A program made the translations under genes and the position numbers. A stretch of 64,000 bases of DNA from Candidatus Latescibacterota bacterium (GTDB lineage: Bacteria > Latescibacterota > UBA2968): contig OZ242320.1 in assembly GCA_965208125.1 (NCBI GenBank), forward strand, positions 4,384,001 through 4,448,000, given 5' to 3'. The notes under the pieces were generated by a model that was given only the letters and a program-made list of their open reading frames with translations, searched no databases and had not been told where the DNA came from. This document shows positions 28,351-48,800 of this stretch, one piece after another; position 1 is the stretch's first letter; each line of letters begins with the position of its first letter.

Positions 28351-29196
28351 CTATTCACAGCTCATCCCGTGTTCGTCGAGCCAGGTTTTGAGGGGCGCGT
28401 CTTCGGGCGTGGGGGAGGTGTAGCCGCGACCGCCGGAGTAGCTGACGCCGAGGAGTTGTTTTTGGATGGGCGTGCAGTGGTCAAGGTAGTGTTCGACGCG
28501 CATGTCGTCGCGGGGGCGAAGCCAGCGATAGGAGTAGCCGTAGAAGAGTACGCGGCGAGGTTCCTTCCAGTAGTTGGTACTGGCCGAGTGCCATAAGCGG
28601 CGGTCAAAAAATACGGCTGAGCCGGGTGGTACGAGCACCGGGATAGCGTCTTTGTGCGGCGCGTTGCGATTTTCTCCGGGAAATGTGTTTTGAGTTTGGC
28701 TTTTGGGAAGGACGTAGAAATTGCCGCGGCCGGGTTGGGTTGTGTCGGTGAGAAAAAAGCCGATTTTGAGGGAGATCATGGGACGCGGGTTCATATCAAA
28801 GTCTTGATTGATGCGCCCGCTGTCTTGATGGAAGCCGAGGCCAGGTCCGTCTTTTTCGAGTGTTTTTTTCGGTTCTGCTGGGGGTGTCACGGTCATATGG
28901 GTGTGGTAGAGCTGGATGTGCCAGCCCAGGATGCCCCACACTTTGGGAAATGTTTTGTACCAGTCGAGCAGGGGCAAGAAGCGGTCGTCCTTGCCTATGA
29001 AGTCGTAGTGGTTGATGCGCGCTGTGGCACTTTTGCCCATCCGAGTGCGTTCTTCTTTATCTACGCGATCTACTGCGACGACGAGATCGCTGACCATGTC
29101 GGATGGCAGGGCGTCTGGAACGATGAAGTAGCCATCCCGTTTGAATTTGCGCGCTTCTTCTTCTGTCAGACAATAATCGAGACATTTGGGGTGCAT
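28351..29196 (-). CDS. Phytanoyl-CoA dioxygenase (PhyH) family Fe/2OG oxygenase
   Basis: F..DGYFIV, FHQDSG (HxD), GSAVFFDRRLWHSA, RRVLFYGY. Confidence 0.88.
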   Translation of the reverse strand: MHPKCLDYCLTEEEARKFKRDGYFIVPDALPSDMVSDLVVAVDRVDKEERTRMGKSATARINHYDFIGKDDRFLPLLDWYKTFPKVWGILGWHIQLYHTHMTVTPPAEPKKTLEKDGPGLGFHQDSGRINQDFDMNPRPMISLKIGFFLTDTTQPGRGNFYVLPKSQTQNTFPGENRNAPHKDAIPVLVPPGSAVFFDRRLWHSASTNYWKEPRRVLFYGYSYRWLRPRDDMRVEHYLDHCTPIQKQLLGVSYSGGRGYTSPTPEDAPLKTWLDEHGMSCE

Positions 29197-29905: not shown

Positions 29906-30667
29906 ATGAAGTTGGGTATTGTCACGTATCAAATCGCCGCGGACTGGGATGTTGCCACTATTATCGAAACCTGTGCGAAGCTCGGTTATGGCGGTGCCGA
30001 GTTGCGTACCACGCATGCTCACGGCGTTGAAACAGACCTTTCGGCGGGACAACGGCAGGATATCCGCAAACAATTTGAAGATGGTGGGGTCGAAATCGCG
30101 GGTTTGGGCTCGGCATTTGAATATCATTCGGATGATCCCGGCGTTGTGCGCGAAAATATTGATGGCACGATTGAATATGCCAAACTCGCCGCGGACCTGG
30201 GTTGCCCGGGCGTTAAGGTGCGGCCCAATGGCCTGCAAACCGGCAAAGGTATTCCGGTGGAGCAAACACTCGAACAAATTGGCAAATCTGTGCGTGAATG
30301 CGCGATTGCCGCTGCTGATCTGGGGGTGCAAATTCGTGTGGAAGTACACGGGCAAGAAACACAAAAGCCAGCACATATGCGCACTATTATGGATTGGGCA
30401 GATCACGACAATGCAAAGATATGCTGGAATTCGAATTTGGGTGAAGTGGAAGACGGTTCTATCAAAGCTAATTTTGATCTGCTCAAACACAAGATCGGTC
30501 TGGTACACATCACCGAATTGTGCAATCCGGCCTATCCATGGCGCGAACTCTTCTCTCTTCTTAAAGCCGAAGGCTATGCGGGATATACGCTGGCTGAAAT
30601 CCCCGGTAGCTCAGATGCCGAGCGTCTGCTCCAATATTACAAGGCATTGTGGGAAGCGTATCAGTAG
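29906..30667 (+). CDS. Sugar phosphate isomerase/epimerase (xylose-isomerase-like TIM barrel)
   Basis: LGYGGAELR, IRVEVHG, VHITEL, GYAGYTLAE; GGGAG RBS. Confidence 0.85.
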   Translation: MKLGIVTYQIAADWDVATIIETCAKLGYGGAELRTTHAHGVETDLSAGQRQDIRKQFEDGGVEIAGLGSAFEYHSDDPGVVRENIDGTIEYAKLAADLGCPGVKVRPNGLQTGKGIPVEQTLEQIGKSVRECAIAAADLGVQIRVEVHGQETQKPAHMRTIMDWADHDNAKICWNSNLGEVEDGSIKANFDLLKHKIGLVHITELCNPAYPWRELFSLLKAEGYAGYTLAEIPGSSDAERLLQYYKALWEAYQ

Positions 30668-30686
30668 GTAGGCTCCGTTCCCTTTG

Positions 30687-31370
30687 ATGAGTGTACAAAA
30701 AGAAATTTACGCCCTCAAACGCGAACTCGCCGCACGTTATCAACTCGGCGAAGAACACCACAATATTTGTGGGCGCAAAATAGGTGTGACTTGTGTTGAA
30801 GATGCCGAAGCACTCTTTGACAAAATGCAAATGGCCGATCCCGATAGCATTGAGATTCAGGATGAACGCCTGCCATATTGGGCAACGCTTTGGGATTCTG
30901 CGCTTGTTTTGTCCGATGTTCTGCTCGCGGATAATCTGATTGCGCCGGGCGAATCTGTGCTTGAACTCGGCTGTGGGTTGGGCCTTGTCTCATCTATTGC
31001 CTGTCTCAAACACGCGCGTGTCACGGCTACGGATTACCAGCCCGACGCACTCAAATTCGCGCAACTCAATGGGTTGCAAATTGCGGGTGTCGCTCCCAGG
31101 ACAATGCTCATCGACTGGCGCGCCCCGCCGCAAGGTCAACACTATGCCACCTTGTTGGGCGCAGATCTCGTGTACGAACTGCGTTTTTTCGATCCTCTCA
31201 TCGCCACATTTGACGCCCTTCTCGCACCGGGAGGGCGCGTTTTATTTTCTGAACCCAATCGCATTTTAGGCAGACCTTTTTTTGACCGTCTGCGCAATGC
31301 GGGCTGGGCGTTTTCCACTATAACTGAGCGGGAAGGTGCGACAGTGTATGAGATCGTGAGAGGTGATTAA
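30687..31370 (+). CDS. Family-16 (METTL21-like) SAM methyltransferase
   Basis: PYWATLWDSA, VLELGCGLGL, ATDY, GADLVYE. Confidence 0.85.
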   Translation: MSVQKEIYALKRELAARYQLGEEHHNICGRKIGVTCVEDAEALFDKMQMADPDSIEIQDERLPYWATLWDSALVLSDVLLADNLIAPGESVLELGCGLGLVSSIACLKHARVTATDYQPDALKFAQLNGLQIAGVAPRTMLIDWRAPPQGQHYATLLGADLVYELRFFDPLIATFDALLAPGGRVLFSEPNRILGRPFFDRLRNAGWAFSTITEREGATVYEIVRGD

Positions 31371-32257
31371 AATATATCCAAATCCGCTGCTTCGATTTCT
31401 TTTCGCAATACTTTCTCTTCTTCCTCATCGAGCGGACGTGTTGGCTTGATGGGGGCACCGCACTCAATTCCCTGCCAGCGCAATACGGCGCGCACGCTAC
31501 CGTGTCCACCGTATTTTTGACAAATCCGAATCAGTTCATTTACGTCTGCTTGCAATGTGCGTGCTGTATCTAAATCGCGCTTGTTCACCGCCTCGTAAAT
31601 GCCCACAAAATGCGCGGGCATCACGTTGTAAAATGTGCCAATACCCCCCTGAGCACCTGCTGCAATGCCCGATAGGGCCACTTCGTCATGTCCGTTAAAA
31701 ATATGCGGTTTATGCGGCCCATTGAGTACGCGTTCCATTAAGAACAAGTTGAAATTTGTGAATTTAATGCCCACCACGCCCTCGAGTGCGAGCATCTGGT
31801 TGATTTGTTCAAACGAATATTCCTGATGCGTGACCACGGGGATGTAATACACAAAGACCGGCAAGTTTGCCGCCGAACTCAACGCGCTGTAATACGCCAA
31901 TATGTCGTCAAAACGATATCCCTGGACATAAGGAGGCAAACTCGAAATGCCATCGGCTCCTGCAGCTGCGGCGTGTTTGGCGAGTTCAACAGCATCTCGC
32001 TCGGAGGGTGCGCCAACGTGTACTACTACTCGTCCACGTCCTTTTGATGCTTTGACGGCAATTTCTGTGGCCAACTTGCGTTCGGCAATTGTCATCAAAT
32101 AGCCTTCGCCCGTGTTGCCTGCCACGTACACGCCGTGCGATCCCTGTTCGTAAATACGCGCTATGAGTTTTTCGAAGGCTGAGGTGCTGAATGTACCTGT
32201 CCCATCCCTGGGGCTGACCAGTGCGGGATACATGCCCTTAAAACCGTCGAGTATCAC
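31367..32257 (-). CDS. Dihydrodipicolinate synthase family aldolase (N-acetylneuraminate lyase-like)
   Basis: GNTGE, VHVG, YYIP, GIKFT Schiff-base Lys, GHDE, GIGTFYN. Confidence 0.88.
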   Translation of the reverse strand: MILDGFKGMYPALVSPRDGTGTFSTSAFEKLIARIYEQGSHGVYVAGNTGEGYLMTIAERKLATEIAVKASKGRGRVVVHVGAPSERDAVELAKHAAAAGADGISSLPPYVQGYRFDDILAYYSALSSAANLPVFVYYIPVVTHQEYSFEQINQMLALEGVVGIKFTNFNLFLMERVLNGPHKPHIFNGHDEVALSGIAAGAQGGIGTFYNVMPAHFVGIYEAVNKRDLDTARTLQADVNELIRICQKYGGHGSVRAVLRWQGIECGAPIKPTRPLDEEEEKVLRKEIEAADLDIF

Positions 32258-33261
32258 AGGGCGCCTCCTGTTTTTTCGTAGAGCGCGCGGGATAGTGATT
32301 CGATTTGTGTGCGTTCAACCAGTGTTTCTATGAGATGTTGCGGCAAACCCGCTGTTCCGTGATACAGCCCGCTCAATGTGCCGGCAATGGCTGCAAATGT
32401 ATCTACATCTCCACCCGTGAGCAGCGCGCGTTCAACCGTGGGAATAAATTCTCCTTCTGAGCGCAAAAATGCCTCTAAAGCTACGACGATCGTGGCCTGG
32501 GCTTCGCTCGGGATGGCATTTTCTCGCGCAGCTTCGGGCATTTTTACCATGGTTGCCCACGCATCTTCTTCGTTCATTGTCAGCAATGTCCCCACCTGTG
32601 CGATCAACTCGCCTGTGGATTCGCAAATCGGTCTGGCCGACCACTCGGCTACGTCCAGCACCTCATTCCCATCCAGCGGGCGATGTGTTACCAGATGCCC
32701 CACCACATGGGCCATTGCGACTGCAGGTGCAACTGCGCGTGGGTCCTGGTGCGTCACATGGCTCGCTGCAATTGCATCTTCCAGGATATTTTCACCGGTT
32801 GCCCAGTGCCACAAGCCCACTGGCGCGATTTTCATAACTGCCCCATTGGAGGGGTGGTCTTTCGATGCGGCATCGGACCACGCCAGACCCTGATCAAGGC
32901 GTTCCAGAGTCTCCTTAAAAGCCCTGCCATACATTTGCAGGAGTCCCTCGCGCCACATCGCCAAAAATCGATTGCTCAGGTCTTCGGGATCTACCTTTTC
33001 ACACGCTATAATTGACTCAACCAAGACGAGGGTCTGCTGGGTATCGTCTGTGTATTCTCCTGCTGGTCGGGTCACTACGCCTTCCCGATTGACCCGCCCT
33101 CGATAGTGGTCTGTCAATCCCTCTACCGCTTTGATCCGACCCCGGTCCCATCCCTCGCAAAAACAGCCCAGGGAATCGCCTATTGCGCCGCCCAGTAGCG
33201 CGCCTACAAACATATCCTCAACCTCGATGTCCTCTATTTCGGCTTCCCAATAATCAGCCAT
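32254..33261 (-). CDS. ADP-ribosylglycohydrolase family protein
   Basis: GGAIGDSLG, YTDDTQ, SNGAVMK, TH, GGDVDT. Confidence 0.92.
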   Translation of the reverse strand: MADYWEAEIEDIEVEDMFVGALLGGAIGDSLGCFCEGWDRGRIKAVEGLTDHYRGRVNREGVVTRPAGEYTDDTQQTLVLVESIIACEKVDPEDLSNRFLAMWREGLLQMYGRAFKETLERLDQGLAWSDAASKDHPSNGAVMKIAPVGLWHWATGENILEDAIAASHVTHQDPRAVAPAVAMAHVVGHLVTHRPLDGNEVLDVAEWSARPICESTGELIAQVGTLLTMNEEDAWATMVKMPEAARENAIPSEAQATIVVALEAFLRSEGEFIPTVERALLTGGDVDTFAAIAGTLSGLYHGTAGLPQHLIETLVERTQIESLSRALYEKTGGAL

Positions 33262-33304
33262 AATTCAAACCTCAAGTTTAATCGGTGAAAAAATACAAGA
33301 GCCT

Positions 33305-34303
33305 CTATTGTGCATCTACGATATTGCGAAATGCTCGAATGTGCTCGGGTGTTGTGCCGCAACATCCGCCTATCAAGAATCCACCGGCGTCCAATAAGTC
33401 TTCGACGTGTTGGGCCATGTCTTCTGGTCCTTGCGAATACGATGCCTGTTTGGTGACTTTGTCCAGGGTGGGTAAGCCCGCATTGGGATAGGCCATCAAG
33501 CGCTTGTTTTCAATGCCGCGATCCCCAAGTGCTTTTTGCATCTGCACTGTGCCCTCAATTGCATAGGGCATGCCCGTGTGATCTGTATTGCGCGTTTCTG
33601 CGCCACAGTTCAAGCCCAGGAGTTGCACATCGCCGAGTAGATTATCGCCGTCTGAAAATTCGCCACTTGCCAAAATGTCCAGTAGGTCGCTGGGTGAAAC
33701 CCCCCAGTCCGTGCGATAGATCAATTCGCCCGTTTTGCGATCCTTTGTGAATTTATACGTCATATTCACGGCGATGGGTAAGCCCGTTTGCCGTGCAATG
33801 TCAACGGCGATTGCCGCTTCTTTGGCGGAAAATTGCGTTTCTATGACAAAAAAATCGACGCCGCCTTTGACCATGGCAGAGATCACGCGCTCGTGGGCCG
33901 ATCGCACATCTACATTGGGGATGCCAAAAACCGTATCGCCGGCATCGGCTTCGATAGCACCGGGGGAGGGACCGATGGAGCCACCCACATAAACATCCTT
34001 TCCGCTTTCTTCAACAGCTTGCCGCGCGTGTTGGACAGCCAATTCTGTCAAGCGCTCGGCATCATCTTCATCGGCGTCGGCCATCTCGAGATGCAGGGGT
34101 GATACCACAAATGTGTTCGTGCCGATGGCGTTTGCACCCGCATCGATATACGCGCGATGCACTGCTACAACCTCGTCGGGATGCGATAGATTGGCGATGG
34201 AACTGTTTGCCAGATTTACCCCGTGTGCAAATAATTGAGATCCAAACCCGCCGTCGTACACCATAGGTTGATCGTCTGCGAGGCGTTCTGCAAAAGACTT
34301 CAT
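33305..34303 (-). CDS. Stand-alone homocysteine S-methyltransferase domain protein (MetH N-terminal-like)
   Basis: DGGFGS, H..YIDAGA..I.TNTF, GSIGP, IET, Zn ligands GLNCG and GGCCGT, YPNAGLP. Confidence 0.92.
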   Translation of the reverse strand: MKSFAERLADDQPMVYDGGFGSQLFAHGVNLANSSIANLSHPDEVVAVHRAYIDAGANAIGTNTFVVSPLHLEMADADEDDAERLTELAVQHARQAVEESGKDVYVGGSIGPSPGAIEADAGDTVFGIPNVDVRSAHERVISAMVKGGVDFFVIETQFSAKEAAIAVDIARQTGLPIAVNMTYKFTKDRKTGELIYRTDWGVSPSDLLDILASGEFSDGDNLLGDVQLLGLNCGAETRNTDHTGMPYAIEGTVQMQKALGDRGIENKRLMAYPNAGLPTLDKVTKQASYSQGPEDMAQHVEDLLDAGGFLIGGCCGTTPEHIRAFRNIVDAQ

Positions 34304-36228
34304 ACTGTCATCCTTTTAAACTGACACCCTTCGACAAATACGTCAAAAAAGTCTGGCTTTGTCTCCAGTTCCACATGCTCAATCCGTTTCACAAGGTGCT
34401 CTAACTCATCGCGTCGTTTCCGCGAGAGGAGGGTTGTTCTCGCGCCCAATATCGCGGCATTTCCCACCTTTTCGATACGCTCTTTTGGCACAGGTGCGAG
34501 AAAACCAATATCAATCGCATTTTGCACATTTACGTAATTGGCAAAACCGCCGGATAGATAAAGCCGATGGATCTGATCGGGGGCGATGCCAAACTCGCGC
34601 ATGACAAGTAACTGCCCACAATAATTTGCGGCCTTGGCCTGAGCCAGATTGCTTGCGTCTTCACGCGACAGCGCAATGCCGTGTTCGGGCACCACCATCA
34701 TTTCATATTGTTTGCGGTCGGCAAATACGCCCTTTTCCGTCATCAAATCATGCCGCCCAAGCTCGGCCAACAAATCGATCAGGCCAGAGCCGCACAATCC
34801 CTGAGGGGCGCCGCCGCCAATTACGCGATAATTGAACTGACCATTTTTCCATACCATCGATTCAATCGCCCCATCTTGCCCGGGCATGCCACAGGCGATG
34901 CCGCCGCCTTCAAATGCCGGTCCCGCCGGACAAGATGCTGCGACCAACCGGTCTCGATTACCCACGACGACCTCGGTATTGGTGCCCACATCGACAAGCA
35001 TAAATATCTCGTCTTGGTCACCCATTTCTACGGCCAGCATGTCCGCCGCGACATCGCCGCCTACATGGCTTGCAATAAGGGGCATGCCATATACCCGCGC
35101 TTTGGGATTTGCGCGAATGCCCAACCGCCTGCTGCTTTCATAAAGGGCGGTTGTTTTTCGCTCTCCGGTCAGATATTCGTGTTCTATTTGAGATTTATAG
35201 GGCTTTTGCCCGATACTCTGCACATCGAGCCTGAAGAACATATCCCGCATGGTGGCATTGCCAGCGACGACAATTTCGTAAATTTCTTGTCGCTCAAACT
35301 CCAATTTTTCACATAGTACGAGAATTTCGTGGTTGATCGCATTTACCAGTGCCTTCCACAGTTCATTTGGATATTCGCCATCATAGGAAATGCGATACAT
35401 GATATCGCTGCCGCCAAAGCGCTGGGGATTTTCGTAAGATGCAATTGCAATACTTTCGCCAGATTCCAGATCTACGAGATCCATCACAATTGTCGTGGTG
35501 CCCACATCAATTGCCAGTCCGTAGATGTGTCCCCGAAACCGATCGATGTCTTCTCCGTCATAGAATACCCGGTCTCCGTTACGCGTTACCACGGGATCGA
35601 GATCGATTTCTTTTTTTTGGCTCAAGGTCAAAATTTGAGGCGCGCGGCGCAGGGGCACAAATTCAACTTCTGCATTCAGATCTACGACTTCGGCCTGACA
35701 CGCCAGGCGGTAATTGTCTTTTAAGAAGGCTTCAGCTTCGGTTTTGGGGCACAGGCTCTCTTCACCTTTTGCAATTTCTACCACGCATTCATGGCATATC
35801 CCCGACCGGAAACACGATGTTGGAACCTGAACGGCCAGATCATCGGCATAATCAAATATTGTCTTTCGCGCTTCGAGTTGTTGCACCTTGCCCATGTGTG
35901 TAATTGTGCCCGTTCCCTTTTTTCGACGACGGTTTTTTTGTTTTTTGAGCGTGGTCTTCATCTCACGATAGGCATTTGGCTCTGTTTCCCAGGCTGTGCG
36001 ATAGTCGAGGTTATCGTTGCTGGCACATTGAAAAAGCGCCCGGTTGGGCGCTGGTTTACGCTGAAATTTACATCCGAATTTGGCGGTGCATTCGTCATCC
36101 TTGTTTTTGTAGGGACAGCGCATTTGCGCCTGTTCGTCGGCATGCTGGACAATATCTGAAAAAATTTCAGACATGCGATCCAGCCGCTTTTGATAGGCTT
36201 CTCGATCTATTTTTTCACGCTCACTCAT
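34300..36228 (-). CDS. Reductive activator of corrinoid proteins (RACo/RamA-like; 2Fe-2S + ASKHA ATPase)
   Basis: SCFRSGICHEC..RLACQ ferredoxin, AIDVGTTT, NPQRFGGSDIM.RI, DVGTNTE, AGPAFEG, GLCGSG, GNAA. Confidence 0.92.
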   Translation of the reverse strand: MSEREKIDREAYQKRLDRMSEIFSDIVQHADEQAQMRCPYKNKDDECTAKFGCKFQRKPAPNRALFQCASNDNLDYRTAWETEPNAYREMKTTLKKQKNRRRKKGTGTITHMGKVQQLEARKTIFDYADDLAVQVPTSCFRSGICHECVVEIAKGEESLCPKTEAEAFLKDNYRLACQAEVVDLNAEVEFVPLRRAPQILTLSQKKEIDLDPVVTRNGDRVFYDGEDIDRFRGHIYGLAIDVGTTTIVMDLVDLESGESIAIASYENPQRFGGSDIMYRISYDGEYPNELWKALVNAINHEILVLCEKLEFERQEIYEIVVAGNATMRDMFFRLDVQSIGQKPYKSQIEHEYLTGERKTTALYESSRRLGIRANPKARVYGMPLIASHVGGDVAADMLAVEMGDQDEIFMLVDVGTNTEVVVGNRDRLVAASCPAGPAFEGGGIACGMPGQDGAIESMVWKNGQFNYRVIGGGAPQGLCGSGLIDLLAELGRHDLMTEKGVFADRKQYEMMVVPEHGIALSREDASNLAQAKAANYCGQLLVMREFGIAPDQIHRLYLSGGFANYVNVQNAIDIGFLAPVPKERIEKVGNAAILGARTTLLSRKRRDELEHLVKRIEHVELETKPDFFDVFVEGCQFKRMTV

Positions 36229-36982
36229 TCTCCTCCTCCCACTCCTTCAACAATTGTACAGCCAGTTCCACGCAGTCCAGGGCGTTTTCACCGTATCCAT
36301 CCGCACCCATGTCGTCGGCAAATTCCTGTGTTACAGGGGCACCACCCACCATAATTTTTACATCGTCTCGCAAGTCTTCGTCGATAAATGCCTCAATTGT
36401 CTTGCCCATATTCGGCATTGTCGTGGTCAATAGTGCCGACATGCCGAGCAAATTGGCTTCGTGTTCTTCGACGGCATCCATAAATTCGTCTTCGGATGTA
36501 TCCACGCCGAGGTCGTGGACGACAAACCCGGCACCGCGCAACATCATGATACACAAATTTTTGCCAATATCGTGCAAATCGCCTTTCACCGTGCCCATAA
36601 TGACCGTACCTACTGGCTCGACGCCCGAGGCTGACAGGATGGGTTCAATATGCGCCATCCCCGCTTTCATCGCGCGGGCACAGGCGAGGACTTCAGGTAC
36701 AAAAATAAAATTCTCTCTAAACTTAATTCCCACAATGCCCATGCCAGCGATCAATCCATCGTCCATAATTTCCAGCGCACCCACGCCTGCATTCAGGGCT
36801 TCGCGCGTCAATTGATCGACATCGTGATGCGCGCCATCGATCAATGCGGCGGCGATTGCCTGCATCTCGGGACTTGCATTTGCGAACAGGTCGATATTGC
36901 GTTGGATCTCATCGGGGCGTTCTAAAAATTCTTCTATTTCCTCTTTGATAAACTCATTTTGAATATCGGATAATTCAGCCAT
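36221..36982 (-). CDS. Corrinoid (B12-binding) protein
   Basis: Cap domain (GLIAGM..VG..F....FVPEVL) plus GDLHDIGKN, SALLT, VGGAP. Confidence 0.95.
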   Translation of the reverse strand: MAELSDIQNEFIKEEIEEFLERPDEIQRNIDLFANASPEMQAIAAALIDGAHHDVDQLTREALNAGVGALEIMDDGLIAGMGIVGIKFRENFIFVPEVLACARAMKAGMAHIEPILSASGVEPVGTVIMGTVKGDLHDIGKNLCIMMLRGAGFVVHDLGVDTSEDEFMDAVEEHEANLLGMSALLTTTMPNMGKTIEAFIDEDLRDDVKIMVGGAPVTQEFADDMGADGYGENALDCVELAVQLLKEWEEENE

Positions 36983-38027
36983 GAACGCTCACTGCCTCCG
37001 CATGCCAATCCACGACCGCTTTTGGGATTTCTTTCAGGTTTTCGATGGATGTCTGCAATGGAATCGCACATTCAGGCCCCACCAGATGTACTCCTGCATT
37101 CAGGTTTTTATACACTTCTTCTTTTACGGTTTCAGGCTCTTTTGAAAATAGCGTTTCCGGATTATTGATATTGCCGACCAGCGCGATTCGCTCTTTCATG
37201 ATATCAATAGATTCATTTGGATCGTTTTTGGAGTCGTAGTGAAATGCCGCCATGCCCGTTTGCGCGATGTATTCCATCCGATCAACGGTGCGCCCGCATA
37301 TATGCAAAATCAGTGGAATGGGTATGCGGTCGGCAAATTCGATGTGCAATTCGCGCAAATACCGGTCGTAATAATCGCCGCTGACCAGATCGCCTGTTGC
37401 GTGATCGGGCAGGGTCAAGGCATCGGCGCCTGCTTCGATTTGCGCTACGCCAAATTCGACGGTTACTTCTTTTAATTTGTCCAGAATTTGCCGTGTGTGA
37501 TCCGGGTCGTCCAGTGATAGGAGCAAAAAATCCTCTACGCCAAAGCAGTGATACGCGAGAGACCAGGGTCCCATTGTTTTGCCGATAATCGCCACTTCGT
37601 CGCCGTATTCTTTTCGCAATATGCCAATCGCGTCCAGCACGCATTTTGTATCGGGATGGGTCAATAAGTTAGACGGGATCTCGATATCATCTACCTTGTG
37701 CCAGATCGGTTCTTTCATTTTTACTGTTGGCCAGTTGTCTTTTTGTTCCCACTGAATTTTGCATCCGAGTGCGGACGATTCTTGAATAATTGTAAATACG
37801 GGCATGATGGTGTCAAAACCGAGTTCGGTATAGCCCGTTGCCGCCAGGCGTGCCATGAGTTCTGGCTCGCGATTCGCCTGCGGAAATGGCGCATCGACGA
37901 GATCCATCAATTCTACGGTTGCAACCGAAGTCGGGTTACAGGTTGGTGTGCGATCCACAGGTGCCCGATTGAGTGCGGCCAATACGCGATCGCGCGGTTT
38001 CATTGGTTTTATTGTCTGGTCGTGCAT
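36975..38027 (-). CDS. MtaA/CmuA-family corrinoid methyltransferase (URO-D fold)
   Basis: ESSALGC, GPWSLA, AGADAL, LHICG and GPECAIP Zn ligands, LVGNIN. Confidence 0.88.
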   Translation of the reverse strand: MHDQTIKPMKPRDRVLAALNRAPVDRTPTCNPTSVATVELMDLVDAPFPQANREPELMARLAATGYTELGFDTIMPVFTIIQESSALGCKIQWEQKDNWPTVKMKEPIWHKVDDIEIPSNLLTHPDTKCVLDAIGILRKEYGDEVAIIGKTMGPWSLAYHCFGVEDFLLLSLDDPDHTRQILDKLKEVTVEFGVAQIEAGADALTLPDHATGDLVSGDYYDRYLRELHIEFADRIPIPLILHICGRTVDRMEYIAQTGMAAFHYDSKNDPNESIDIMKERIALVGNINNPETLFSKEPETVKEEVYKNLNAGVHLVGPECAIPLQTSIENLKEIPKAVVDWHAEAVSVHG

Positions 38028-38042
38028 ACGTGACTCCAGTTT

Positions 38043-38672
38043 CTAATTCTGCGCGCTCGGGGCTGCGAGTACGCCCCGGCTGGCAGCCTGTTCCAATTCT
38101 CGCATGACGGATCGCACATTGGGGGCGCGTACGAGAAGGACACCTATGAGGGGATCGTGCGTAATACCGCAATCAAAGCGCACCTGATCTTCTTCCACTT
38201 GTTCCAATTCGCCCAGTTTTGCAAGCCCTCCGGCTACCAATCGAATGCGCCGGTCTGCGCCTTTTTCATCGCTGTCAGCCGTGATTTTGTACGCGCCATT
38301 AGATTGGGGCGTTGCGGAAATATGCAATCCCGATTTTTTGTCCAGAATGGTCAACGGACGCATAGATACATCGTCATTCATGCCGAGTTTGCACGCTTCC
38401 AAAAATAGTCGCTTCACAGATAGCAGGTGTGTGGTTCCGCACGCAAAGCGCAGCAATCCCTCACCTGTGTCTTCCATTCCCCCCAGGACCCGCATCGCGT
38501 GGTTTACGGAGTCAATTCGCGCTTGCGCCCCGTCTATCTGGCTATATGTGTGAACGCGAAAAGTTGTACCCTGCGCGTTTTCTTGGCGATATAGCCCTAT
38601 TGTGATGTCGTGAAAATGGACATCCATTGGCACCAATTCGATTCGCCGACCTATGTCTAATGTCTGTCCCAT
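38043..38672 (-). CDS. Hypothetical protein associated with the corrinoid module
   Basis: 209-aa ORF overlapping the HAD gene end and 15 nt before the methyltransferase. No motif recognised. Confidence 0.75.
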   Translation of the reverse strand: MGQTLDIGRRIELVPMDVHFHDITIGLYRQENAQGTTFRVHTYSQIDGAQARIDSVNHAMRVLGGMEDTGEGLLRFACGTTHLLSVKRLFLEACKLGMNDDVSMRPLTILDKKSGLHISATPQSNGAYKITADSDEKGADRRIRLVAGGLAKLGELEQVEEDQVRFDCGITHDPLIGVLLVRAPNVRSVMRELEQAASRGVLAAPSAQN

Positions 38673-39550
38673 GAGTATTCTTCCCCTTGCCTGTCAAGCA
38701 CATATCGACGCACGGCTTTGGCAAATCCATCGTTTTCAATGTGGTCGGTTTGTAGAATATTTTCCCCGGCCACTGCGCGATGGGTTGCCGCATCTGCATT
38801 GTGCATTAACACACCGGTTCCGGCTGCGCGCAACATGGGGAGATCATTATTGCCATCGCCCACAGCCATCACTTCATCGAGGCTGCTGCCAATGTGGTTG
38901 GCTATCGCTGTGAGTGCCGCGCCTTTGTTCACATCCGGGTGCATGATTTCGATGCGACCCGCCACAGCCCATGCCATGTAAATTTGATCGCCAAATAGGT
39001 CTTTTAATTCTTCAACCGTCTCATCGGCATGCCCAGGTTTGGGCAAGAGCATTATTTTGGGGGGCGAGGCCAATTCTTTTGCGCGTATTCGTTGCGCGAG
39101 GTCGGCATCGACTTCATAGACCATATTGGTCATTGTGGCTACCGCGCGGCTCATTTTTGTCGTGCGGTCGGTGATATAAACTTCGCAGGGGCCTTCGCTA
39201 TTCATGTCGCAGCGACAATATACAAAATTCATGAGCCTGTCATTGGCATATTGGATCAGCGATAAAAATATGTCATCGGGCAAACGCTGTTCGTGCATGA
39301 GTTGGCGTGTGCCATTCTTTTTGGGTGCAAAAACCATCGCGCCATTATAACATCCGGCGTAGAGCGCGTCGGCCACGCTGGGATTGCGTACAAATGGAAT
39401 TTGATTGCGTTCGAAATTGCGCCCACTCATAGACGCTACAGCCACGCCGCGATCCAATAATTCGCAAATCGCCGCCATCGAAGCATCCGATGGGGTGTTG
39501 TTGTGATTTAAGATCGTTCCATCCAGATCAAATGCCACAAGTCTGATCAC
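38657..39550 (-). CDS. Cof-type HAD-IIB phosphatase
   Basis: FDLDGT, SGR, NGA, KG.AL, GDGNNDLPML. GTG 39550 after AGGAG. Confidence 0.9.
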   Translation of the reverse strand: MIRLVAFDLDGTILNHNNTPSDASMAAICELLDRGVAVASMSGRNFERNQIPFVRNPSVADALYAGCYNGAMVFAPKKNGTRQLMHEQRLPDDIFLSLIQYANDRLMNFVYCRCDMNSEGPCEVYITDRTTKMSRAVATMTNMVYEVDADLAQRIRAKELASPPKIMLLPKPGHADETVEELKDLFGDQIYMAWAVAGRIEIMHPDVNKGAALTAIANHIGSSLDEVMAVGDGNNDLPMLRAAGTGVLMHNADAATHRAVAGENILQTDHIENDGFAKAVRRYVLDRQGEEYSWDRH

Positions 39551-39560
39551 TGCATCTCCT

Positions 39561-40598
39561 CTAATCAACCAGAGGCAACCGAACGGTTCCGCCGCGCTCT
39601 GCCGAGCGGTGAACCGCTTCGGTAAATTCCATATATCTCATGCCTTCGTAAAAGCTGGTATCGCCCTGAGGCCCACCCTTGATGGCATTGATGAAATCGG
39701 CTTCGACAGCCCATTCGGCGGCTTCATCTTCGGGGATGGGTATTTCTTGCGGTCGTCGATCACCCGTTTTTGCACCGCGAATTTGCGTTCCCATGTCGTA
39801 GGTCAATGTGCCGTCACTGCCATAAGCTTCCACGACGGAGCTTCCGCCAAATTGCGCGACGCCCGAAAACAGAAATGCCGCACGCGCACCATTTTCCATT
39901 TTGCCTATGATATGCGCCATATCAGGTGTTTCAACCGGTCCAGTGCCAGACCCATCGGGTAGTGGTCGCTCTCTGGTAAAAATGTCAGTTTCAGCCGTTA
40001 TGGTTGACATATAGCCAAATACGCGCGCTACGCGCTCAATGGTAATGCCCATTCCCAGGATATTCAGCCCCGAATACCGGCCCATTTGTCGCCAGTGCAA
40101 TGGCTCTTCAGTATCCCAATAGCGCCCACCCAGATCGCGGACATAGACGTGGAAGATATCGCCCAAATACCCTTCATCTATGAGCCGCCGCAAGAAACGC
40201 CCACCTTTCCACGGCGGTGCTGGACAAATTTGGGTTACGAGATTTGTTTCTCGACTTCTGGCATACATCAATCGGGCTTCTCGCAAGTTCATCGCCATGC
40301 GCGCCTGTACAAAGGTGTGTTTGCCCGCGTCTAAGGATGCGAGGACGAATTCACAGTGTTTGTACGGCCAGGTGCCGATCATTACGGCGTCGATGTCGTC
40401 CCGGTGTAACAGGGCCTGTGGGTCTGTCATGGCTTCGGCTGATAAGTCCTGCTCAGCTATTACTTTTTCGCCGCTTTCTATACTGCGGTTGCATATTGCC
40501 ACGACTTCGGCATCGTCAATTTTTGCCAGTCCCGGAAAATGCCGGCTCCGAAAAATACCACCCGCACCAATAATGCCAATGCGAATTTTATCTGCCAT
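39561..40598 (-). CDS. Gfo/Idh/MocA oxidoreductase (paralog A)
   Basis: IGIIGAGG Rossmann fold, DAVMIGTWP..H, QARMA in place of EKP. Confidence 0.9.
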   Translation of the reverse strand: MADKIRIGIIGAGGIFRSRHFPGLAKIDDAEVVAICNRSIESGEKVIAEQDLSAEAMTDPQALLHRDDIDAVMIGTWPYKHCEFVLASLDAGKHTFVQARMAMNLREARLMYARSRETNLVTQICPAPPWKGGRFLRRLIDEGYLGDIFHVYVRDLGGRYWDTEEPLHWRQMGRYSGLNILGMGITIERVARVFGYMSTITAETDIFTRERPLPDGSGTGPVETPDMAHIIGKMENGARAAFLFSGVAQFGGSSVVEAYGSDGTLTYDMGTQIRGAKTGDRRPQEIPIPEDEAAEWAVEADFINAIKGGPQGDTSFYEGMRYMEFTEAVHRSAERGGTVRLPLVD

Positions 40599-40716
40599 TT
40601 TTTACCTCATTATGTTGTCGTTGTTATTCTTTCCAATGTTAAGGGGATAGAACTACATGCGAATGTATCATAGTTTTTGTCAATTAGCAAATAAATCGGC
40701 CACGGCAGCGCTGCCA

Positions 40717-42027
40717 TTAATCATTCCTGTTTTCGCTTTTCGCCAAACTGGCACAAACCAGTTCTTTATCATTGCGAGCGAACACATGTTTATAGGCAAA
40801 CGCAGGATGCGCCCACGTGACACCCCCTCTGCGGTTCAACTGGTCGCGCGTCGGTTCGATCAGTTTCGCGCGGCTGATGATATTCAGCCCGTCCGGCGAA
40901 AGCGTTGTAATCAGGAGTTCTCCGCGCTCATTGAACATCCAGACCTTATCGCCATTTTTGATAAAATGGATGTTGCTCCAGCGCGCTTTTGGAACCGCGG
41001 TGAGGTCTTCCCAAATCCGATCGCCGTTGCGGGCATCGAGACAGCGGAGTTCCCCATAGCTATCCACACCGTAAATATAATCGCCGAGTCGAATCGGGGT
41101 TGACATCGTGGAATGGAGCGCGTCTGTGTTCCGTTCATTTATTCCCTTACGGTGCCAACCGAATTGCATCATCGGCTTATCTGGATCCAGTTTCAGCAGC
41201 AATGAGCCTTCAAAGAAATCAGTGATAAACAACTCGTTTTGATAAAAAACGGGACTTGCGATCCCGATCTCCATGCGAGTCGGTGGAAACGGATGGCGCC
41301 AATGCGTGCTGCCTGTCTGCGGGTTGAGCCCAGCGATATTTCTACCTGTCCAACAGACGAGCACCCGCTCGCCACCCTGTGTAATCACAATTGGAGCTGA
41401 GTAAGATGCGTTGTCTTCAAGGGCTTTCCATTTTTCGGCTCCGGTTTTGCGATCGAAAGCGACGATGCACGCTCCGGGCGTGCCGCCGATTTGTACGATG
41501 AGGTGTGAACCCTCGACAATCGGGGCGCTCGCAATCCCCCAGGTTGGCATCTCAATATTGTATTCGGCGTTGAGGTCTTTTTCCCACTTCAACGTGCCGG
41601 TTGCAGCATCAAAGCAGTGGAGATGCCCCATCGCTCCTAAGGCGTAAGCGAGGCCGTCATGAATGATAACATTGGCTCGGGGCCCGGCGGTATAGTCAAT
41701 TCGGTATTCACACTCGTAGGTGAAGGACCAAATCAATTCCCCTGTTTCCCAGTCGAAACAGTGAACCCGTTCGACCTGTTTCGGTTTCGCGAGACGGTCA
41801 GTAACGTAAACGCGCCCGTCAGCGACGCTCGGGCCGCTATAGCCGCTGCCGATTGGCACTCGCCAACGAATCGGAATCTCCGGTCCGTCAAATGCCTCCA
41901 ATATCCCGGTTTCGCTCCAAACACCGTCCCGGTGCGGTCCCCGCCACTGCGGCCATTCATCGGCCAAAACCGAAGACGTGGGGACAAGCACAGCGAGCAG
42001 CATTAGTTTCAATAGGATTCGGTTCAT
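40717..42027 (-). CDS. Secreted PQQ-binding-like beta-propeller protein
   Basis: Signal peptide, DEWPQWRGPHRDG, repeated D..TG...W blades, WAHPA. Confidence 0.88.
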   Translation of the reverse strand: MNRILLKLMLLAVLVPTSSVLADEWPQWRGPHRDGVWSETGILEAFDGPEIPIRWRVPIGSGYSGPSVADGRVYVTDRLAKPKQVERVHCFDWETGELIWSFTYECEYRIDYTAGPRANVIIHDGLAYALGAMGHLHCFDAATGTLKWEKDLNAEYNIEMPTWGIASAPIVEGSHLIVQIGGTPGACIVAFDRKTGAEKWKALEDNASYSAPIVITQGGERVLVCWTGRNIAGLNPQTGSTHWRHPFPPTRMEIGIASPVFYQNELFITDFFEGSLLLKLDPDKPMMQFGWHRKGINERNTDALHSTMSTPIRLGDYIYGVDSYGELRCLDARNGDRIWEDLTAVPKARWSNIHFIKNGDKVWMFNERGELLITTLSPDGLNIISRAKLIEPTRDQLNRRGGVTWAHPAFAYKHVFARNDKELVCASLAKSENRND

Positions 42028-42029
42028 GG

Positions 42030-43382
42030 TTACTCTTGTCTTTTTTTAAAACGCAAATTTTTGACCCGGTTTCCCGTCAGCCTGAACCCTGTAACTTGTC
42101 CCGTATTGTCTCGCGTAAAATAAACTTCCGGGAAAAACCACGCATCTCCGACGAAATGACCGTCGGCACAGGTTAGCGATATGTCGTCATGCCGTCTGTG
42201 TTGCGCCACAAGCCGGTCCCTTTGTACACCAATGGTATAGGTGGTATCGAGTTCTTCGGTGTAATAATCGCCTTCGAATTCTGACAACTGTTCTGGTGAT
42301 AGGGGTTCGGTCTCGTTGCTTTCAGAGGGTTGCTTATCCGGCTCAGGTGCCTCGGGCGCAAGGACATCAGCGAGATAGATATCAGCGATCTTTTTCGCCA
42401 GATTAAGTGGGGTGAAGGTGTCCAGATTGCACAGTATGACAACGCCAAATTTCTGAGCTGGAAAACGTATGAGATGGCTGCGAAACCCCCGCCATGATCC
42501 GCCGTGTCCGACCGTTTTCAGTGCTCTGTACTCGCCGATATCCAATCCGAAGGCGTAACTGATCTGTTTCCCATTATTGAGAACCCCTCGCTGATGAATC
42601 TGCTCAATCACTACCTGTCCGCCTATCCGCGCATCGTCAAAGTTCAGAACCCACTTTGCCAGATCTTCCACGGTTGAATAGAGCGAACTCGAACCGAGAG
42701 CGGTTAAATTGTTCACGGCATTCTTGAACCCGTTATCTTTCACGGACAAATAGGAATACGCCCGGTTCTTCACAATCATCTCGTGGTCATCGTGAAAGTG
42801 GGTGTTGGTCATGGCGAGGGGCTTAAAGATGTTGGCGTCCGTCCATTCGCGAAATGAATCTCCCGTTATTGTTTCAACGATTTCTGCCAGCAGATTATAC
42901 CCCGTATTTGAGTATAAAAACGCTGTTCCAGGCTCGAAGTTGAGTTCTTTTTGACGCCTTGCCATTTTCAAAATATGTTTAAACGAGATCACGTCATCCA
43001 TCTCTCCGCCTGCGATGACGAGTGCCTGTACCCAATCCCGCAAGCCACTCGTGTGATGCACCAGATGTCGAATTGTTATTTTTGTTCCAAAATCCGGGAC
43101 ATCGGGCAAGTGCATCCGAATATCGTCATCCAGCGCGAGTTTCCCTTCATCCAACAACGTGGCGATGGCAAAGCCCGCAAATTGCTTGGAGACCGAAGCA
43201 ATGTCGAAGATGGTTGTCGGCGCAATCGGGATGTCGTATTCCAGATTCGCCATACCGTATCCGCGTTTGTAGATAATTTCGCCGTCTTTGATAACCGATA
43301 GGGCCGCGCCAGGGGTATCTGGCTTGTCCCATTCCGCGAATACACGATCGACTTTTGCCTCAAGTGACTCGTGATTTGTCAT
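42030..43382 (-). CDS. Serine hydrolase, beta-lactamase class C/AmpC-like family
   Basis: ASVSK (SxxK), HHTSGL, YSN, HGG. Confidence 0.9.
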   Translation of the reverse strand: MTNHESLEAKVDRVFAEWDKPDTPGAALSVIKDGEIIYKRGYGMANLEYDIPIAPTTIFDIASVSKQFAGFAIATLLDEGKLALDDDIRMHLPDVPDFGTKITIRHLVHHTSGLRDWVQALVIAGGEMDDVISFKHILKMARRQKELNFEPGTAFLYSNTGYNLLAEIVETITGDSFREWTDANIFKPLAMTNTHFHDDHEMIVKNRAYSYLSVKDNGFKNAVNNLTALGSSSLYSTVEDLAKWVLNFDDARIGGQVVIEQIHQRGVLNNGKQISYAFGLDIGEYRALKTVGHGGSWRGFRSHLIRFPAQKFGVVILCNLDTFTPLNLAKKIADIYLADVLAPEAPEPDKQPSESNETEPLSPEQLSEFEGDYYTEELDTTYTIGVQRDRLVAQHRRHDDISLTCADGHFVGDAWFFPEVYFTRDNTGQVTGFRLTGNRVKNLRFKKRQE

Positions 43383-44188
43383 TGATCACCTTCTCCTGAG
43401 ATCAGGCCCGTCACTTGCATCGCGGTCCTGGCAATCTCTGAGAGCGCGCATTCGCCGGTGACGCGATCGCCGAGTTCCCGGCTGTAGAGCGCAATCACCA
43501 TCGTCCCGACAGAGGATTCGACGAAGCCGACATCATTGATTACACCCCGATTCGAGCCGGTTTTGGAACCCCAGCGATAGGTCCTGGAGGTCGGCACATA
43601 TCGGCCGATGCGGCGACCATTCTGTTGCTGGGTCAAGGTGGTGAGCATGGCTTGACAGGATGCGGGGGATGCGGCCTGGTCGTCAAGGATTGTCTTGACG
43701 ACGGCAGTGTAGTTATTCGGTGTAGCCCAATTTTCCTGTTCCCCTTCAACCGCGAGACGCCCGCGCATGGGACGTCCGAGAGTGGAGGCGGTCATACCGA
43801 GTTCTCGCATTGTCTCGTTGATGCGATCCATTCCGGCCACTTCAATCAATATGTTGGTGGCGGTGTTGTCGCTGATGGACATCATCAAGTACAGAAGATC
43901 TCCAAACGACAGTTGCAGTCCGGTATGCATGTGTCGCAGCACACCACTGCCGGGGGATTTATCCACAGAGCGGATGATATATGTGTCGTCGAGTGCCAGT
44001 GTGCCGCGATCAATAGCTCTGTAGATCTCGATCATGATCGGAATTTTAACTGTGCTGGCCGCTGGAAACTGATGATCACCCCGTGATGCCCAACTCTCTC
44101 CGTGAGGCGAAATCACACTGACGCCGATCGTGCCGGGCGATTCGTACTCTTTAACCGTTTGTTCCAGCCTGCTCCAGTCTGTGGTCAT
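43379..44188 (-). CDS. Serine hydrolase, class A beta-lactamase-like fold
   Basis: ASTVK, SDN, KTG. ATG 44188 after GAGG. Confidence 0.88.
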   Translation of the reverse strand: MTTDWSRLEQTVKEYESPGTIGVSVISPHGESWASRGDHQFPAASTVKIPIMIEIYRAIDRGTLALDDTYIIRSVDKSPGSGVLRHMHTGLQLSFGDLLYLMMSISDNTATNILIEVAGMDRINETMRELGMTASTLGRPMRGRLAVEGEQENWATPNNYTAVVKTILDDQAASPASCQAMLTTLTQQQNGRRIGRYVPTSRTYRWGSKTGSNRGVINDVGFVESSVGTMVIALYSRELGDRVTGECALSEIARTAMQVTGLISGEGDQ

Positions 44189-44196
44189 GTGGCCTC

Positions 44197-45246: not shown

Positions 45247-45259
45247 TACAACCTCCATT

Positions 45260-46255: not shown

Positions 46256-46269
46256 AATAATACTCCTTT

Positions 46270-46725
46270 CTATGAATCAGGCCAGTTCACCGGAATCAAT
46301 CGCAGTGTGCCATTACCCCGATTGCAACCTGGTGTAATCTCGATTGTTTGACTCGTCTTGTAATCCGCAGTGTCCAATGTAACGGATATTGCAAAAGTAC
46401 ACGACCCTCCGGCAGCTATTAAAGCAGGTGAACACACCTCTTCGCCCATCCCCAACAGGGCGCCGTTTTCACCCAACACACGTACGAACACTCTAAGGTC
46501 CCCGAGGTCCAAATTTGATTGACTGTCAACCGTACCCCTTATATGGATAACACTGAGAGTTACAGGCGCACCTGTATCGCCCGCAGGCATAGTAACAGTC
46601 TCGCCCGTAATAATTGTACTCAAAACAACTAAATCTTCGGACATAAAGACCTGGGATCCGGTAGTGTCGTCTTTGGAACATCCGAACAAAAAAAAGACAG
46701 ATAAAAAACTAATGATGTATTTCAT
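46270..46725 (-). CDS. Putative lipoprotein
   Basis: MKYIISFLSVFFLFG-C lipobox; AAAGGAG RBS before ATG 46725. Confidence 0.75.
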   Translation of the reverse strand: MKYIISFLSVFFLFGCSKDDTTGSQVFMSEDLVVLSTIITGETVTMPAGDTGAPVTLSVIHIRGTVDSQSNLDLGDLRVFVRVLGENGALLGMGEEVCSPALIAAGGSCTFAISVTLDTADYKTSQTIEITPGCNRGNGTLRLIPVNWPDS

Positions 46726-46819
46726 CGCAGTCTCCTTTCTTTTTTGATACGCCGCGTTTGACGCAACAATATACACGCCAAAACCGTATCGAGCAAGGGA
46801 GCTATCAGTTATCAGTTGG

Positions 46820-47200: not shown

Positions 47201-47207
47201 AGATTAT

Positions 47208-48798: not shown

Positions 48799-48800
48799 AG

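Follow-up and report, generated by a model that had tools for sequence, protein, structure and literature searches.

The window analysed here, a 64,000-nucleotide stretch of a Latescibacterota genome, carries a compact cluster of five co-oriented genes that we describe as a candidate corrinoid-dependent methyl relay (Table 1). The cluster encodes a 209-aa protein (g209), a URO-D-fold methyltransferase of the MtaA/CmuA type (URO-D), a corrinoid protein, a RACo/RamA-type activase (RACo) and a stand-alone homocysteine (Hcy)-type methyltransferase (the Hcy module). A first-pass annotation, made from the letters of the window, had described these genes as a tightly packed set, and this description was borne out: the open reading frames (ORFs) lie at the positions listed, and the domain calls were confirmed by Pfam and NCBIfam. 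A gap of 15 nt separates g209 from URO-D, while overlaps of 8 nt (URO-D/corrinoid), 8 nt (corrinoid/RACo) and 4 nt (RACo/Hcy) were measured at the other three of the four junctions, within the range of 4-8 nt that had been claimed. The quoted motifs are likewise all present in the translations (LHICG and PEC in URO-D, DLHDIG in the corrinoid protein, GLNC and GGCC in the Hcy module), and none of the 62 scanned ORFs of the window matched Pterin_bind or Met_synt_B12, consistent with the reported lack of a pterin-binding gene and of a MetH-type S-adenosylmethionine reactivation domain. Since the set recurs in many genomes, as described below, it represents real gene content and not a chance pattern.

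Table 1. Genes of the corrinoid cluster and nearby genes in the window
Feature	Position (nt)	Strand	Evidence
g209, 209-aa protein without assigned family	38043-38672	minus	ORF
URO-D-fold MtaA/CmuA-type zinc methyltransferase, 350 aa	36975-38027	minus	PF01208 1.5e-65 (Pfam)
Corrinoid protein, 253 aa	36221-36982	minus	B12-binding_2 PF02607 1.6e-19 and B12-binding PF02310 1.6e-27 (Pfam)
RACo/RamA-type activase, 642 aa	34300-36228	minus	Fer2 2.9e-07, Raco_middle 6.2e-42, RACo_C_ter 1.1e-69 (PF00111, PF17651, PF14574)
Stand-alone Hcy-type zinc methyltransferase, 332 aa	33305-34303	minus	S-methyl_trans PF02574, 3.4e-52
Cof-type HAD phosphatase, possible upstream operon member	38657-39568	minus	Pfam
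GFO/IDH/MocA oxidoreductase, possible upstream operon member	39561-40598	minus	Pfam
PhyH-family 2-oxoglutarate (2OG)/Fe(II) oxygenase	28351-29196	minus	

The URO-D protein scored above the NCBIfam cut-offs of the MtaA/CmuA subfamily (TIGR01463, 256 against 235.4 bits; PRK06252, 267 against 244) and below the equivalog cut-offs of MtaA and MtbA (NF040654, 242 against 400 bits; NF041608, 204 against 600). Its closest solved relative is MtaA (4ay7, 4e-50), with an alignment spanning residues 11-337, in which LHICG and PEC of the window protein align with LHICG and PGC of 4ay7 (His-x-Cys ... Cys). The residues of this zinc motif, H242 and C244 in LHICG and C320 in PEC, are invariant in 18 orthologues, and the best 120 database matches were all orthologues with at least 79% identity. 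The context of the nearest paralogues (42-47% identical), examined in three other Latescibacterota, contains no corrinoid genes and is therefore uninformative. URO-D is best read as a putative methyl donor:corrinoid methyltransferase (methyltransferase I, MT I). We also observed an identity of 82% to the organism of locus L048 for URO-D and equally for the corrinoid protein (window 36221-38027 against L048 8054-9931), while the same two genomes share 64% identity in the housekeeping protein MnmG, 65% in the Hcy module, 58% in RACo and 49% in g209. The difference between 82% and the 64% of MnmG indicates either unusually strong constraint or lateral spread of this gene pair.

The protein g209 matched no Pfam or NCBIfam family, and none in Pfam even at E values up to 10. 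An alignment of 11 orthologues revealed the invariant residues H41, C78, H82, C94, C168 and H172, and these histidines and cysteines may form a metal site. The protein is an internal duplication, with two beta3-alpha-beta2-alpha repeats in a confident AlphaFold2 model (predicted local distance difference test score 85.8, predicted template modelling score 0.82). Foldseek gave no match in the Protein Data Bank (PDB) at E<=0.001, a wide VIA search reached at best a Z score of 6.9 over 88 residues of urea carboxylase, within the noise band, the ESM Atlas held no usable match, and phmmer against the PDB sequences returned none below E 1; neither a known nor a new fold can be claimed. The family comprises 1623 database proteins, and all members to which a source gives a name are called hypothetical. 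A profile search of 1.84 billion representatives yielded 270 clusters (50% identity). In the 150 best of them, all short and stand-alone, the longest protein had 359 aa and there was no fusion to URO-D or to other domains.

The corrinoid protein contains the cap and Rossmann domains together with the DxHxxG motif (DLHDIG; D135, H137, G140) and is 76-100% identical in related loci. It scored below all named equivalog cut-offs, for example those of MtgC (NF047996, 197 against 370) and TIGR02370 (191 against 215), and is proposed to be the methyl carrier. RACo also fell below its equivalog cut-offs (AcsV, 311 against 800 bits; RamA TIGR04270, 122 against 500), and its domain set is complete, with a ferredoxin (2Fe-2S) domain, a RACo middle region and an ASKHA C-terminal domain. 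Ahead of the 2Fe-2S domain lies an N-terminal extension of about 100 residues with C38, C47, C53, C68 and a Lys/Arg-rich stretch, which was covered by no Pfam family in the Pfam scan. The Hcy module scored 178.5 bits against a PF02574 cut-off of 22, and remained below the equivalog cut-offs of BHMT, MmuM and MetH. Its zinc cysteines C233 (GLNC), C314 and C315 (GGCC) are invariant in 23 orthologues, and it aligns to the Hcy barrel of Thermotoga maritima MetH (1q7m), with DGGFGS, ETQFS (E155) and GGCCGTTPEH kept. Given this alignment, and given that the Hcy gene adjoins the genes for the corrinoid protein and RACo in 63 of the 80 loci examined below, homocysteine would be the methyl acceptor and methyl-corrinoid the methyl donor, and the module is proposed to be a methylcorrinoid:homocysteine methyltransferase (methyltransferase II, MT II). 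The corrinoid protein, RACo and the Hcy module together correspond to the known split-methionine-synthase hub of aerobic marine bacteria (MtgC, RamA and MtgE in roseobacters).

We then considered the cluster against the inventory of its host genome, a single 5.75-Mb contig of a Latescibacterota metagenome-assembled genome (MAG) that is 96.4% complete, using six-frame family searches of the whole genome. The pterin-binding family PF00809 was found in a 306-aa FolP-like ORF and in a 1222-aa ORF, both outside the window. The latter also holds S-methyl_trans, B12-binding and Met_synt_B12 domains, the last of these being found nowhere else, and is therefore a complete MetH. A stand-alone pterin-binding gene, the possible missing piece of a folate-dependent system, is thus absent from the rest of the genome, and with a complete MetH present the relay would be an extra route to methionine and not the sole one. 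As for the other methionine synthase that the first-pass annotation had in view, MetE is represented by a weak 348-aa MetE-like ORF. One canonical methylenetetrahydrofolate reductase (MTHFR; MetF) is encoded. The URO-D family has two members, the window gene and a HemE-like gene (424 bits), while the window RACo is the only RACo and the window corrinoid protein the only stand-alone B12-binding protein of the genome. The MttB family (PF06253) and DUF1638 (PF07796) had no match in the whole genome. A third PF02574 gene of 363 aa (G000:C1:5437542-5438402; L005 1381-3654) is located directly upstream of an N-methyl-L-tryptophan/sarcosine oxidase-like gene (NF008425, 288 bits). We set this gene aside as a part of the relay, as it is BHMT-like, 24% identical to the window Hcy protein and accompanied by the oxidase-like neighbour; it probably belongs to a betaine-type homocysteine methyltransferase pathway unrelated to the cluster.

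The genome also encodes a haem-copper oxidase subunit I (COX1, 478 bits), and the host organism, probably a sponge-associated bacterium, is predicted to be able to respire oxygen. The 2OG dioxygenase from which the first-pass annotation had argued for exposure to oxygen is indeed present, as a PhyH-family oxygenase (Table 1). Its further remark that RACo is atypical of such organisms does not stand, because the same hub with a RamA-like activase has been described in aerobic marine bacteria (PMC5764234, PMC12478193).

To what extent the five genes belong together was examined by comparing genomes. The Hcy-type protein has 2725 database matches at E<=0.001; the best 120 are at least 61% identical, and those that carry a source label are labelled Latescibacteria, Poribacteria or Gemmatimonadetes. 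A pattern scan with one genome per species gave 283 confirmed Hcy loci, from which the best 80 were taken, mostly from Poribacteria and Latescibacterota MAGs, and their gene content was counted within +/-9 kb of the Hcy gene. All five genes were present in 24 loci and four genes in one locus at a contig edge, while 38 loci had the corrinoid protein, RACo and the Hcy module without URO-D, 16 had the Hcy gene alone (several of these on short contigs), and one had RACo and Hcy at a contig edge. When 50 of these 80 genomes, again mostly Poribacteria and Latescibacterota, were searched in full, exactly one URO-D orthologue with 77-90% identity was found in each of the 50. In 19 of the 20 Poribacteria examined, URO-D is located elsewhere in the genome from the Hcy locus, with g209 directly upstream of it. 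The exception, locus L132 of Poribacteria genome G025 (9066-9854), has no g209 next to URO-D; beside URO-D we found an ORF for a 262-aa thioredoxin-domain protein instead and, on the other side, dockerin-domain ORFs.

Furthermore, a phylum scan of 168 genomes, with URO-D orthologues defined by at least 67% identity, identified an Hcy orthologue in 116 genomes, a URO-D orthologue in 124 and g209 in 125. Hcy and URO-D occurred together in 113 genomes, Hcy only in three, all fragmentary MAGs, and URO-D only in 11. Conserved co-occurrence of the gene set, a point raised by the first-pass annotation, therefore held both in the fully searched genomes and in the phylum scan. The bond between g209 and URO-D is tighter still: all 124 genomes with a URO-D orthologue also have g209, none has URO-D alone, and the g209 of the single further genome is a piece cut off by the end of its contig. 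By contrast, g209 was missing from all 15 genomes whose only such gene is a 42-47% identical URO-D paralogue. These patterns mark g209 as a constant partner of the URO-D enzyme, not a bystander. Judging from its perfect co-occurrence and its adjacency, g209 may act on URO-D as an additional subunit, by presenting the substrate, or by assisting with a metal or cofactor.

Related genomes revealed that g209, URO-D, the corrinoid protein and RACo form a constant core, to which an Hcy arm, a folate arm or both are attached as acceptor arms. The window and 31 of the 50 genomes have the Hcy module only. Most telling were the 11 genomes that have URO-D and lack the window-type Hcy module. A folate arm without this module occurs in L143, L144 and L145, from complete or near-complete Latescibacterota genomes. 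The gene order in L143 and L144 is a divergent GntR gene, g209, URO-D, corrinoid protein, RACo, an MTHFR-like/DUF5981 gene (536-559 aa), a pterin-binding gene (345 aa) and a small PF13769 gene; the L145 cluster runs to the locus edge. Both arms are present in L051, L062, L063, L077, L088, L146 and L148. In L146 and L148, from another family, a compact PF02574 paralogue, 30% identical to the window protein, lies between URO-D and the corrinoid gene and the same folate arm follows, while in L088 (Poribacteria) URO-D, corrinoid protein, RACo, PhyH, MTHFR-like, pterin-binding, PF13769 and Ldh_2 genes are followed by the Hcy gene. PF00809 proteins other than FolP were distributed as follows in the 50 genomes: 31 encode a full-length MetH and no free pterin protein, 14 a free pterin protein of 345-449 aa and no MetH, three encode both, and two neither. 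In the genus of the window, all 21 genomes have just FolP and MetH, without a free pterin subunit, as do 27 of 31 genomes of the family. A pterin subunit that always accompanies the cluster, which would supply it with methyl-folate, is thus not what these genomes contain. The claim of the first-pass annotation that the relay lacks a folate arm is correct for this genome but does not extend to relatives, in which the same core carries a pterin-binding protein and an MTHFR-like gene. The folate-free form is therefore one state of a modular hub.

This variation bears on the direction of methyl transfer. The methyl group of methyl-Co(III) is classically accepted by tetrahydrofolate as well as by homocysteine, and given that the core is constant while the acceptor arms vary, URO-D is best read as the loading enzyme: every type of genome then has one donor and at least one acceptor, an outcome that no other role for URO-D provides. 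If URO-D instead unloaded the corrinoid in the manner of MtaA, genomes of the window type would have two acceptors and no donor, unless the PF02574 protein methylates Co(I). The first-pass annotation had likewise let URO-D load and the Hcy module unload, and comparative genomics, through the constant core and the varying acceptor arm, is what favours this assignment.

From the observed gene set, domains, metal and cofactor motifs, conservation and genome-wide lack of a free pterin subunit, we infer the following scheme in each of its catalytic steps, in its direction of transfer and in its donor. RACo, with ATP and a low-potential electron, would return the corrinoid protein to Co(I); URO-D with its partner g209 would transfer a methyl group from a small non-folate donor, so that the corrinoid protein carries methyl-Co(III); and the Hcy module, having activated homocysteine at its zinc site, would take up this methyl group to form methionine. 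The hub would thereby be fed by URO-D/g209 in place of a pterin-binding subunit. With moderate confidence, we propose that the cluster is a folate-independent corrinoid relay that supplies homocysteine with methyl groups from a non-folate donor, which is probably either a methyl halide or a compound of methyl-sulfur type. The full-length alignment with MtaA and the intact His-Cys-Cys zinc site point to a thiolate or selenolate leaving group, or to a halide as in CmuA. If the scheme is right, the leading candidates, with a chance slightly short of even, are methylated compounds of sulfur or selenium, for example dimethylsulfide, methanethiol or a methylthio metabolite. A methyl halide is a clearly weaker candidate, as are all remaining kinds of donor taken together, and an O-methyl compound, for example a methylated sugar or cyclitol, is rather less probable again. 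The aromatic O-demethylases OdmB and VdmB of the URO-D superfamily are only about 17% identical to MtaA-like proteins (PMC10418091).

Several observations weigh against this scheme. MtaA, the closest characterised relative of URO-D, has the opposite role and unloads methyl-corrinoid onto a thiol, and because both flanking enzymes have thiol-activating zinc sites, the direction of transfer is not fixed by sequence alone. Thioether-to-thioether methyl transfer is moreover close to thermoneutral. Because the host genome encodes MetF and a BHMT-like protein besides its complete MetH, it shows no evident need for the relay. A separate pterin subunit accompanies the same hub in 17 of the 50 genomes, and methionine formation from methyl-folate may be the ancestral task of the hub, with URO-D serving something else. 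Across phyla, the surroundings of g209-URO-D keep neither a transporter gene nor a catabolic gene specific to a donor, so that the context cannot name the donor, although such a lack fits a small, common substrate. The support for the scheme comes from comparative genomics.

The first of these points leads to a reversed relay, in which URO-D unloads methyl-corrinoid onto a thiol (a coenzyme M-like cofactor, sulfide or selenide) and the PF02574 protein loads the corrinoid from methionine, S-methylmethionine or another sulfonium or thioether compound. In its favour, the best characterised relative is the MT II enzyme MtaA, and the zinc triad is intact in the window protein; PF02574 is also hugely expanded in two related genomes (26 and 32 matches), suggesting members with substrates other than homocysteine. 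However, we know of no PF02574 enzyme that methylates Co(I), the window protein keeps the residues aligned with the MetH Hcy barrel, and it belongs to a one-per-genome orthologue group adjoining the corrinoid protein. Genomes that combine the pterin arm and URO-D without a window-type Hcy module would, on this account, need a B12-dependent S-methylation of a thiol from methyl-folate, for which there is no bacterial precedent. On the other hand, an Mlp enzyme of anaerobes methylates selenide from methylcobalamin in vitro (PMC10418091), which speaks for the reversed relay. We regard this relay as unlikely, yet the strongest of the alternatives.

Alternatively, the cluster could be an ordinary split methionine synthase, in which methyl-tetrahydrofolate is still the donor, either through the URO-D barrel or through a pterin module acting in trans (the MetH barrel or an undetected protein), and URO-D/g209 is a non-orthologous replacement rather than a new donor route. 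The combination of corrinoid protein, RACo and Hcy module matches the architecture of split MetH (PMC5764234, PMC12478193), and Kountz and Balskus suggest that one of the URO-D homologues might be a folate methyltransferase still to be discovered (PMC10418091). In addition, the free pterin subunit and full MetH are nearly mutually exclusive in the 50 genomes, which indicates that the hub serves as methionine synthase in some lineages. Nevertheless, URO-D shares an operon with a true pterin-binding protein in L088, L143, L144 and L148, where it would be redundant, the activation of methyl-folate makes no use of a zinc site such as its conserved His-Cys-Cys, and a complete MetH, activation domain included, is already encoded in the host genome. 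We consider a folate-fed relay improbable, a little more so than the reversed one.

The third alternative is a special case of the folate-independent relay and concerns the donor, with URO-D/g209 demethylating a sugar, sugar acid or inositol, the methyl group passing to homocysteine and the product being processed by the neighbouring GFO/IDH/MocA oxidoreductase, the Cof-type phosphatase and a DHDPS-family aldolase. The GFO/IDH/MocA and HAD-Cof genes abut the cluster and are kept beside it in two Latescibacterota families, including more distant members of the phylum (L028-L030; L143-L145), together with DHDPS-family paralogues and a GntR/FCD regulator, so that a methylated sugar or cyclitol stays among the candidate donors. 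This alternative is nonetheless very unlikely, as Poribacteria do not retain these neighbours and have g209-URO-D either on its own or next to genes for a PQQ_2 propeller and a beta-lactamase-fold protein, as the window URO-D is clearly MtaA-like and so unlike OdmB and VdmB, and as an identity of 80% across phyla fits a small universal substrate better.

A folate-independent relay of this kind has its nearest counterpart in the MtgBCDE system of Ruegeria, where one corrinoid protein serves an MttB-family glycine-betaine methyltransferase, a bidirectional pterin-binding subunit and an Hcy module, with RamA and DUF1638 (PMC12478193), and in the three-part split methionine synthase with a RamA-like activase of Phaeobacter inhibens (PMC5764234). 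The window cluster resembles these systems of Ruegeria pomeroyi and P. inhibens in its separate corrinoid protein, its PF02574 module, its RamA/RACo activase with a ferredoxin domain and its aerobic host. It would also share with MtgBCDE a single corrinoid protein common to a donor enzyme and methionine synthesis (PMC12478193, PMC5764234), and its relatives share a MetF2-like gene beside the pterin subunit. In contrast to MtgBCDE, the host genome has no pterin-binding MtgD, MttB-family MtgB or DUF1638, the putative donor enzyme is an MtaA-like URO-D with g209, and the genes lie in one operon. In PMC12478193 the roseobacter MtgC is placed near CmuA, and the terms URO-D, uroporphyrinogen and MtaA do not occur.

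Anaerobes have type 1 mlp clusters, described in PMC10418091 as containing several Mlp (MtaA-like) paralogues, a corrinoid protein and an activase, but no folate methyltransferase. The proposed metabolism of methyl-sulfur or methyl-selenium compounds feeding methionine is similar. The window cluster differs in having a single URO-D, an Hcy module and g209, where type 1 mlp clusters have two or three Mlp paralogues, Mlp2 and Mlp3 among them, and no PF02574 protein, and in a genome with COX1 and a PhyH-family oxygenase, where the same source reports type 1 mlp from obligate anaerobes only. With MtaABC, MtbA and MtsAB of methanogens (MtaA 4ay7/4ay8), the cluster shares the full-length URO-D alignment and the zinc motif, and would share the three-component logic of a corrinoid protein with an ATP-dependent activase; it is set apart from MtaA and MtbA by the equivalog scores of URO-D and by an acceptor or donor that would not be coenzyme M. 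To our knowledge, bacteria of this kind are not known to make coenzyme M. Among members of the family, MtsA also loads a corrinoid protein from dimethylsulfide.

In the chloromethane pathway of aerobic methylotrophs (CmuA/CmuB/MetF2), CmuA unites the methyltransferase and corrinoid domains in one protein, and the acceptor is tetrahydrofolate via CmuB. Like the cmu system, the window cluster would use a domain of the MtaA/CmuA family to load the corrinoid with a methyl group taken from a donor other than folate, under aerobic conditions, and the layout of the relatives with pterin and MTHFR-like genes (L143, L144, L088) is similar as well. Unlike in cmu, the methyltransferase and corrinoid protein of the window are separate ORFs, RACo and g209 are present, no free pterin protein is found, and the acceptor module is for homocysteine. 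Compared with MetH, the window proteins have a homologous Hcy barrel with a Cys3 zinc site and B12 cap and Rossmann domains, whereas the modules are separate proteins without a pterin barrel or an S-adenosylmethionine activation domain, and reactivation would be by RACo. Our literature searches brought up no paper that describes URO-D paired with g209 or connects this pair with the Hcy module, and the passages of PMC9999580 that were consulted do not describe the arrangement. Taken together, the URO-D and g209 donor side is the undescribed part, while the corrinoid-RACo-Hcy hub is already known.

Next to the cluster, the HAD gene upstream of g209 overlaps it by 16 nt. A promoter and terminator scan of positions 30500-45500 gave counts at the level of shuffled sequence (14 against 16.0 +/- 4.2; 24 against 17.7 +/- 4.0), and we therefore take no operon boundary from it. 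Contigs from four RNA libraries (four studies, three labelled sponge metagenome), aligned to window positions 31000-40700 at 90% likeness or more, cover all five genes, with depth in 30, 30, 29 and 23 of 30 bins, and single contigs bridge the corrinoid/URO-D, URO-D/g209, RACo/corrinoid and g209/HAD junctions. RNA libraries may contain DNA and such contigs do not prove a transcript; they are a weak hint that the cluster is expressed in close relatives.

The cluster is embedded in a run of about 20 consecutive minus-strand genes with short gaps or overlaps (31367-50557), which starts with an MGMT-like gene, continues with GFO/IDH/MocA, AP_endonuc_2, BacA and beta-lactamase-fold genes and the cluster itself, and ends with ADP-ribosylglycohydrolase and DHDPS/NAL-family genes. 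PQQ_2 beta-propeller and beta-lactamase-fold genes are found upstream of g209-URO-D both in the window (40717-44200, minus strand) and in Poribacteria (L134 4774-7296; L139 9709-12275), with PQQ_2 matches in 14 of 20 Poribacteria loci. The propellers of the window and of Poribacteria are homologous (25% identity, 6e-43), and the beta-lactamase-fold proteins show no detectable homology (E 0.03). A functional link of the propeller is doubtful, since the window copy, as read from the alignment, appears to start with a signal-like hydrophobic stretch. A PhyH-family oxygenase lies near the corrinoid cluster in three distant genomes, namely that of the window and those of L088 (3812-4633) and L146 (12154-13113); in L088 it sits between RACo and the MTHFR-like gene. 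The two genomes rich in PF02574, both complete Latescibacterota genomes without the window-type Hcy module, are G092 (32 matches) and G111 (26 matches). Most of these matches are stand-alone ORFs of about 290-390 aa, many in tandem arrays (G092:C1 840-893 kb and 5.258-5.313 Mb; G111:C1 24-93 kb). Enzymes resembling homocysteine methyltransferases thus seem to have expanded greatly in these genomes, and they may differ in their methyl donors. At the 3' end of the window (57137-63578, minus strand) are a Type ISP restriction-modification enzyme (1057 aa, Type_ISP_C and N6_Mtase), a PD-(D/E)XK nuclease and a DUF433/DUF5615 pair.

It is an evenly balanced proposition, in our estimation, that URO-D and g209 are a new two-protein methyl donor:corrinoid methyltransferase. 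It would allow aerobic bacteria, among them symbionts of sponges and other marine species, to form methionine directly from a plentiful methyl compound that is not a folate, for example a methyl halide, dimethylsulfide, methanethiol or another methylthio metabolite. If true, this would be a folate-independent, B12-dependent methionine synthase route, which by a swap of acceptor arms also feeds tetrahydrofolate in related genomes. The hub, which in roseobacters was recently shown to work with glycine betaine, would in that case also accept methyl groups from an unrelated second class of donor enzyme, thought typical of methanogens and strict anaerobes, and the conserved, unannotated g209 family, which has no recognisable fold, would gain its first functional context. 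Methionine synthesis in many uncultured marine and sponge-associated bacteria would be wired directly to a methylated environmental or salvage compound, the identity of which would bear on marine sulfur and halocarbon cycling and on the need of the symbionts for cobalamin.

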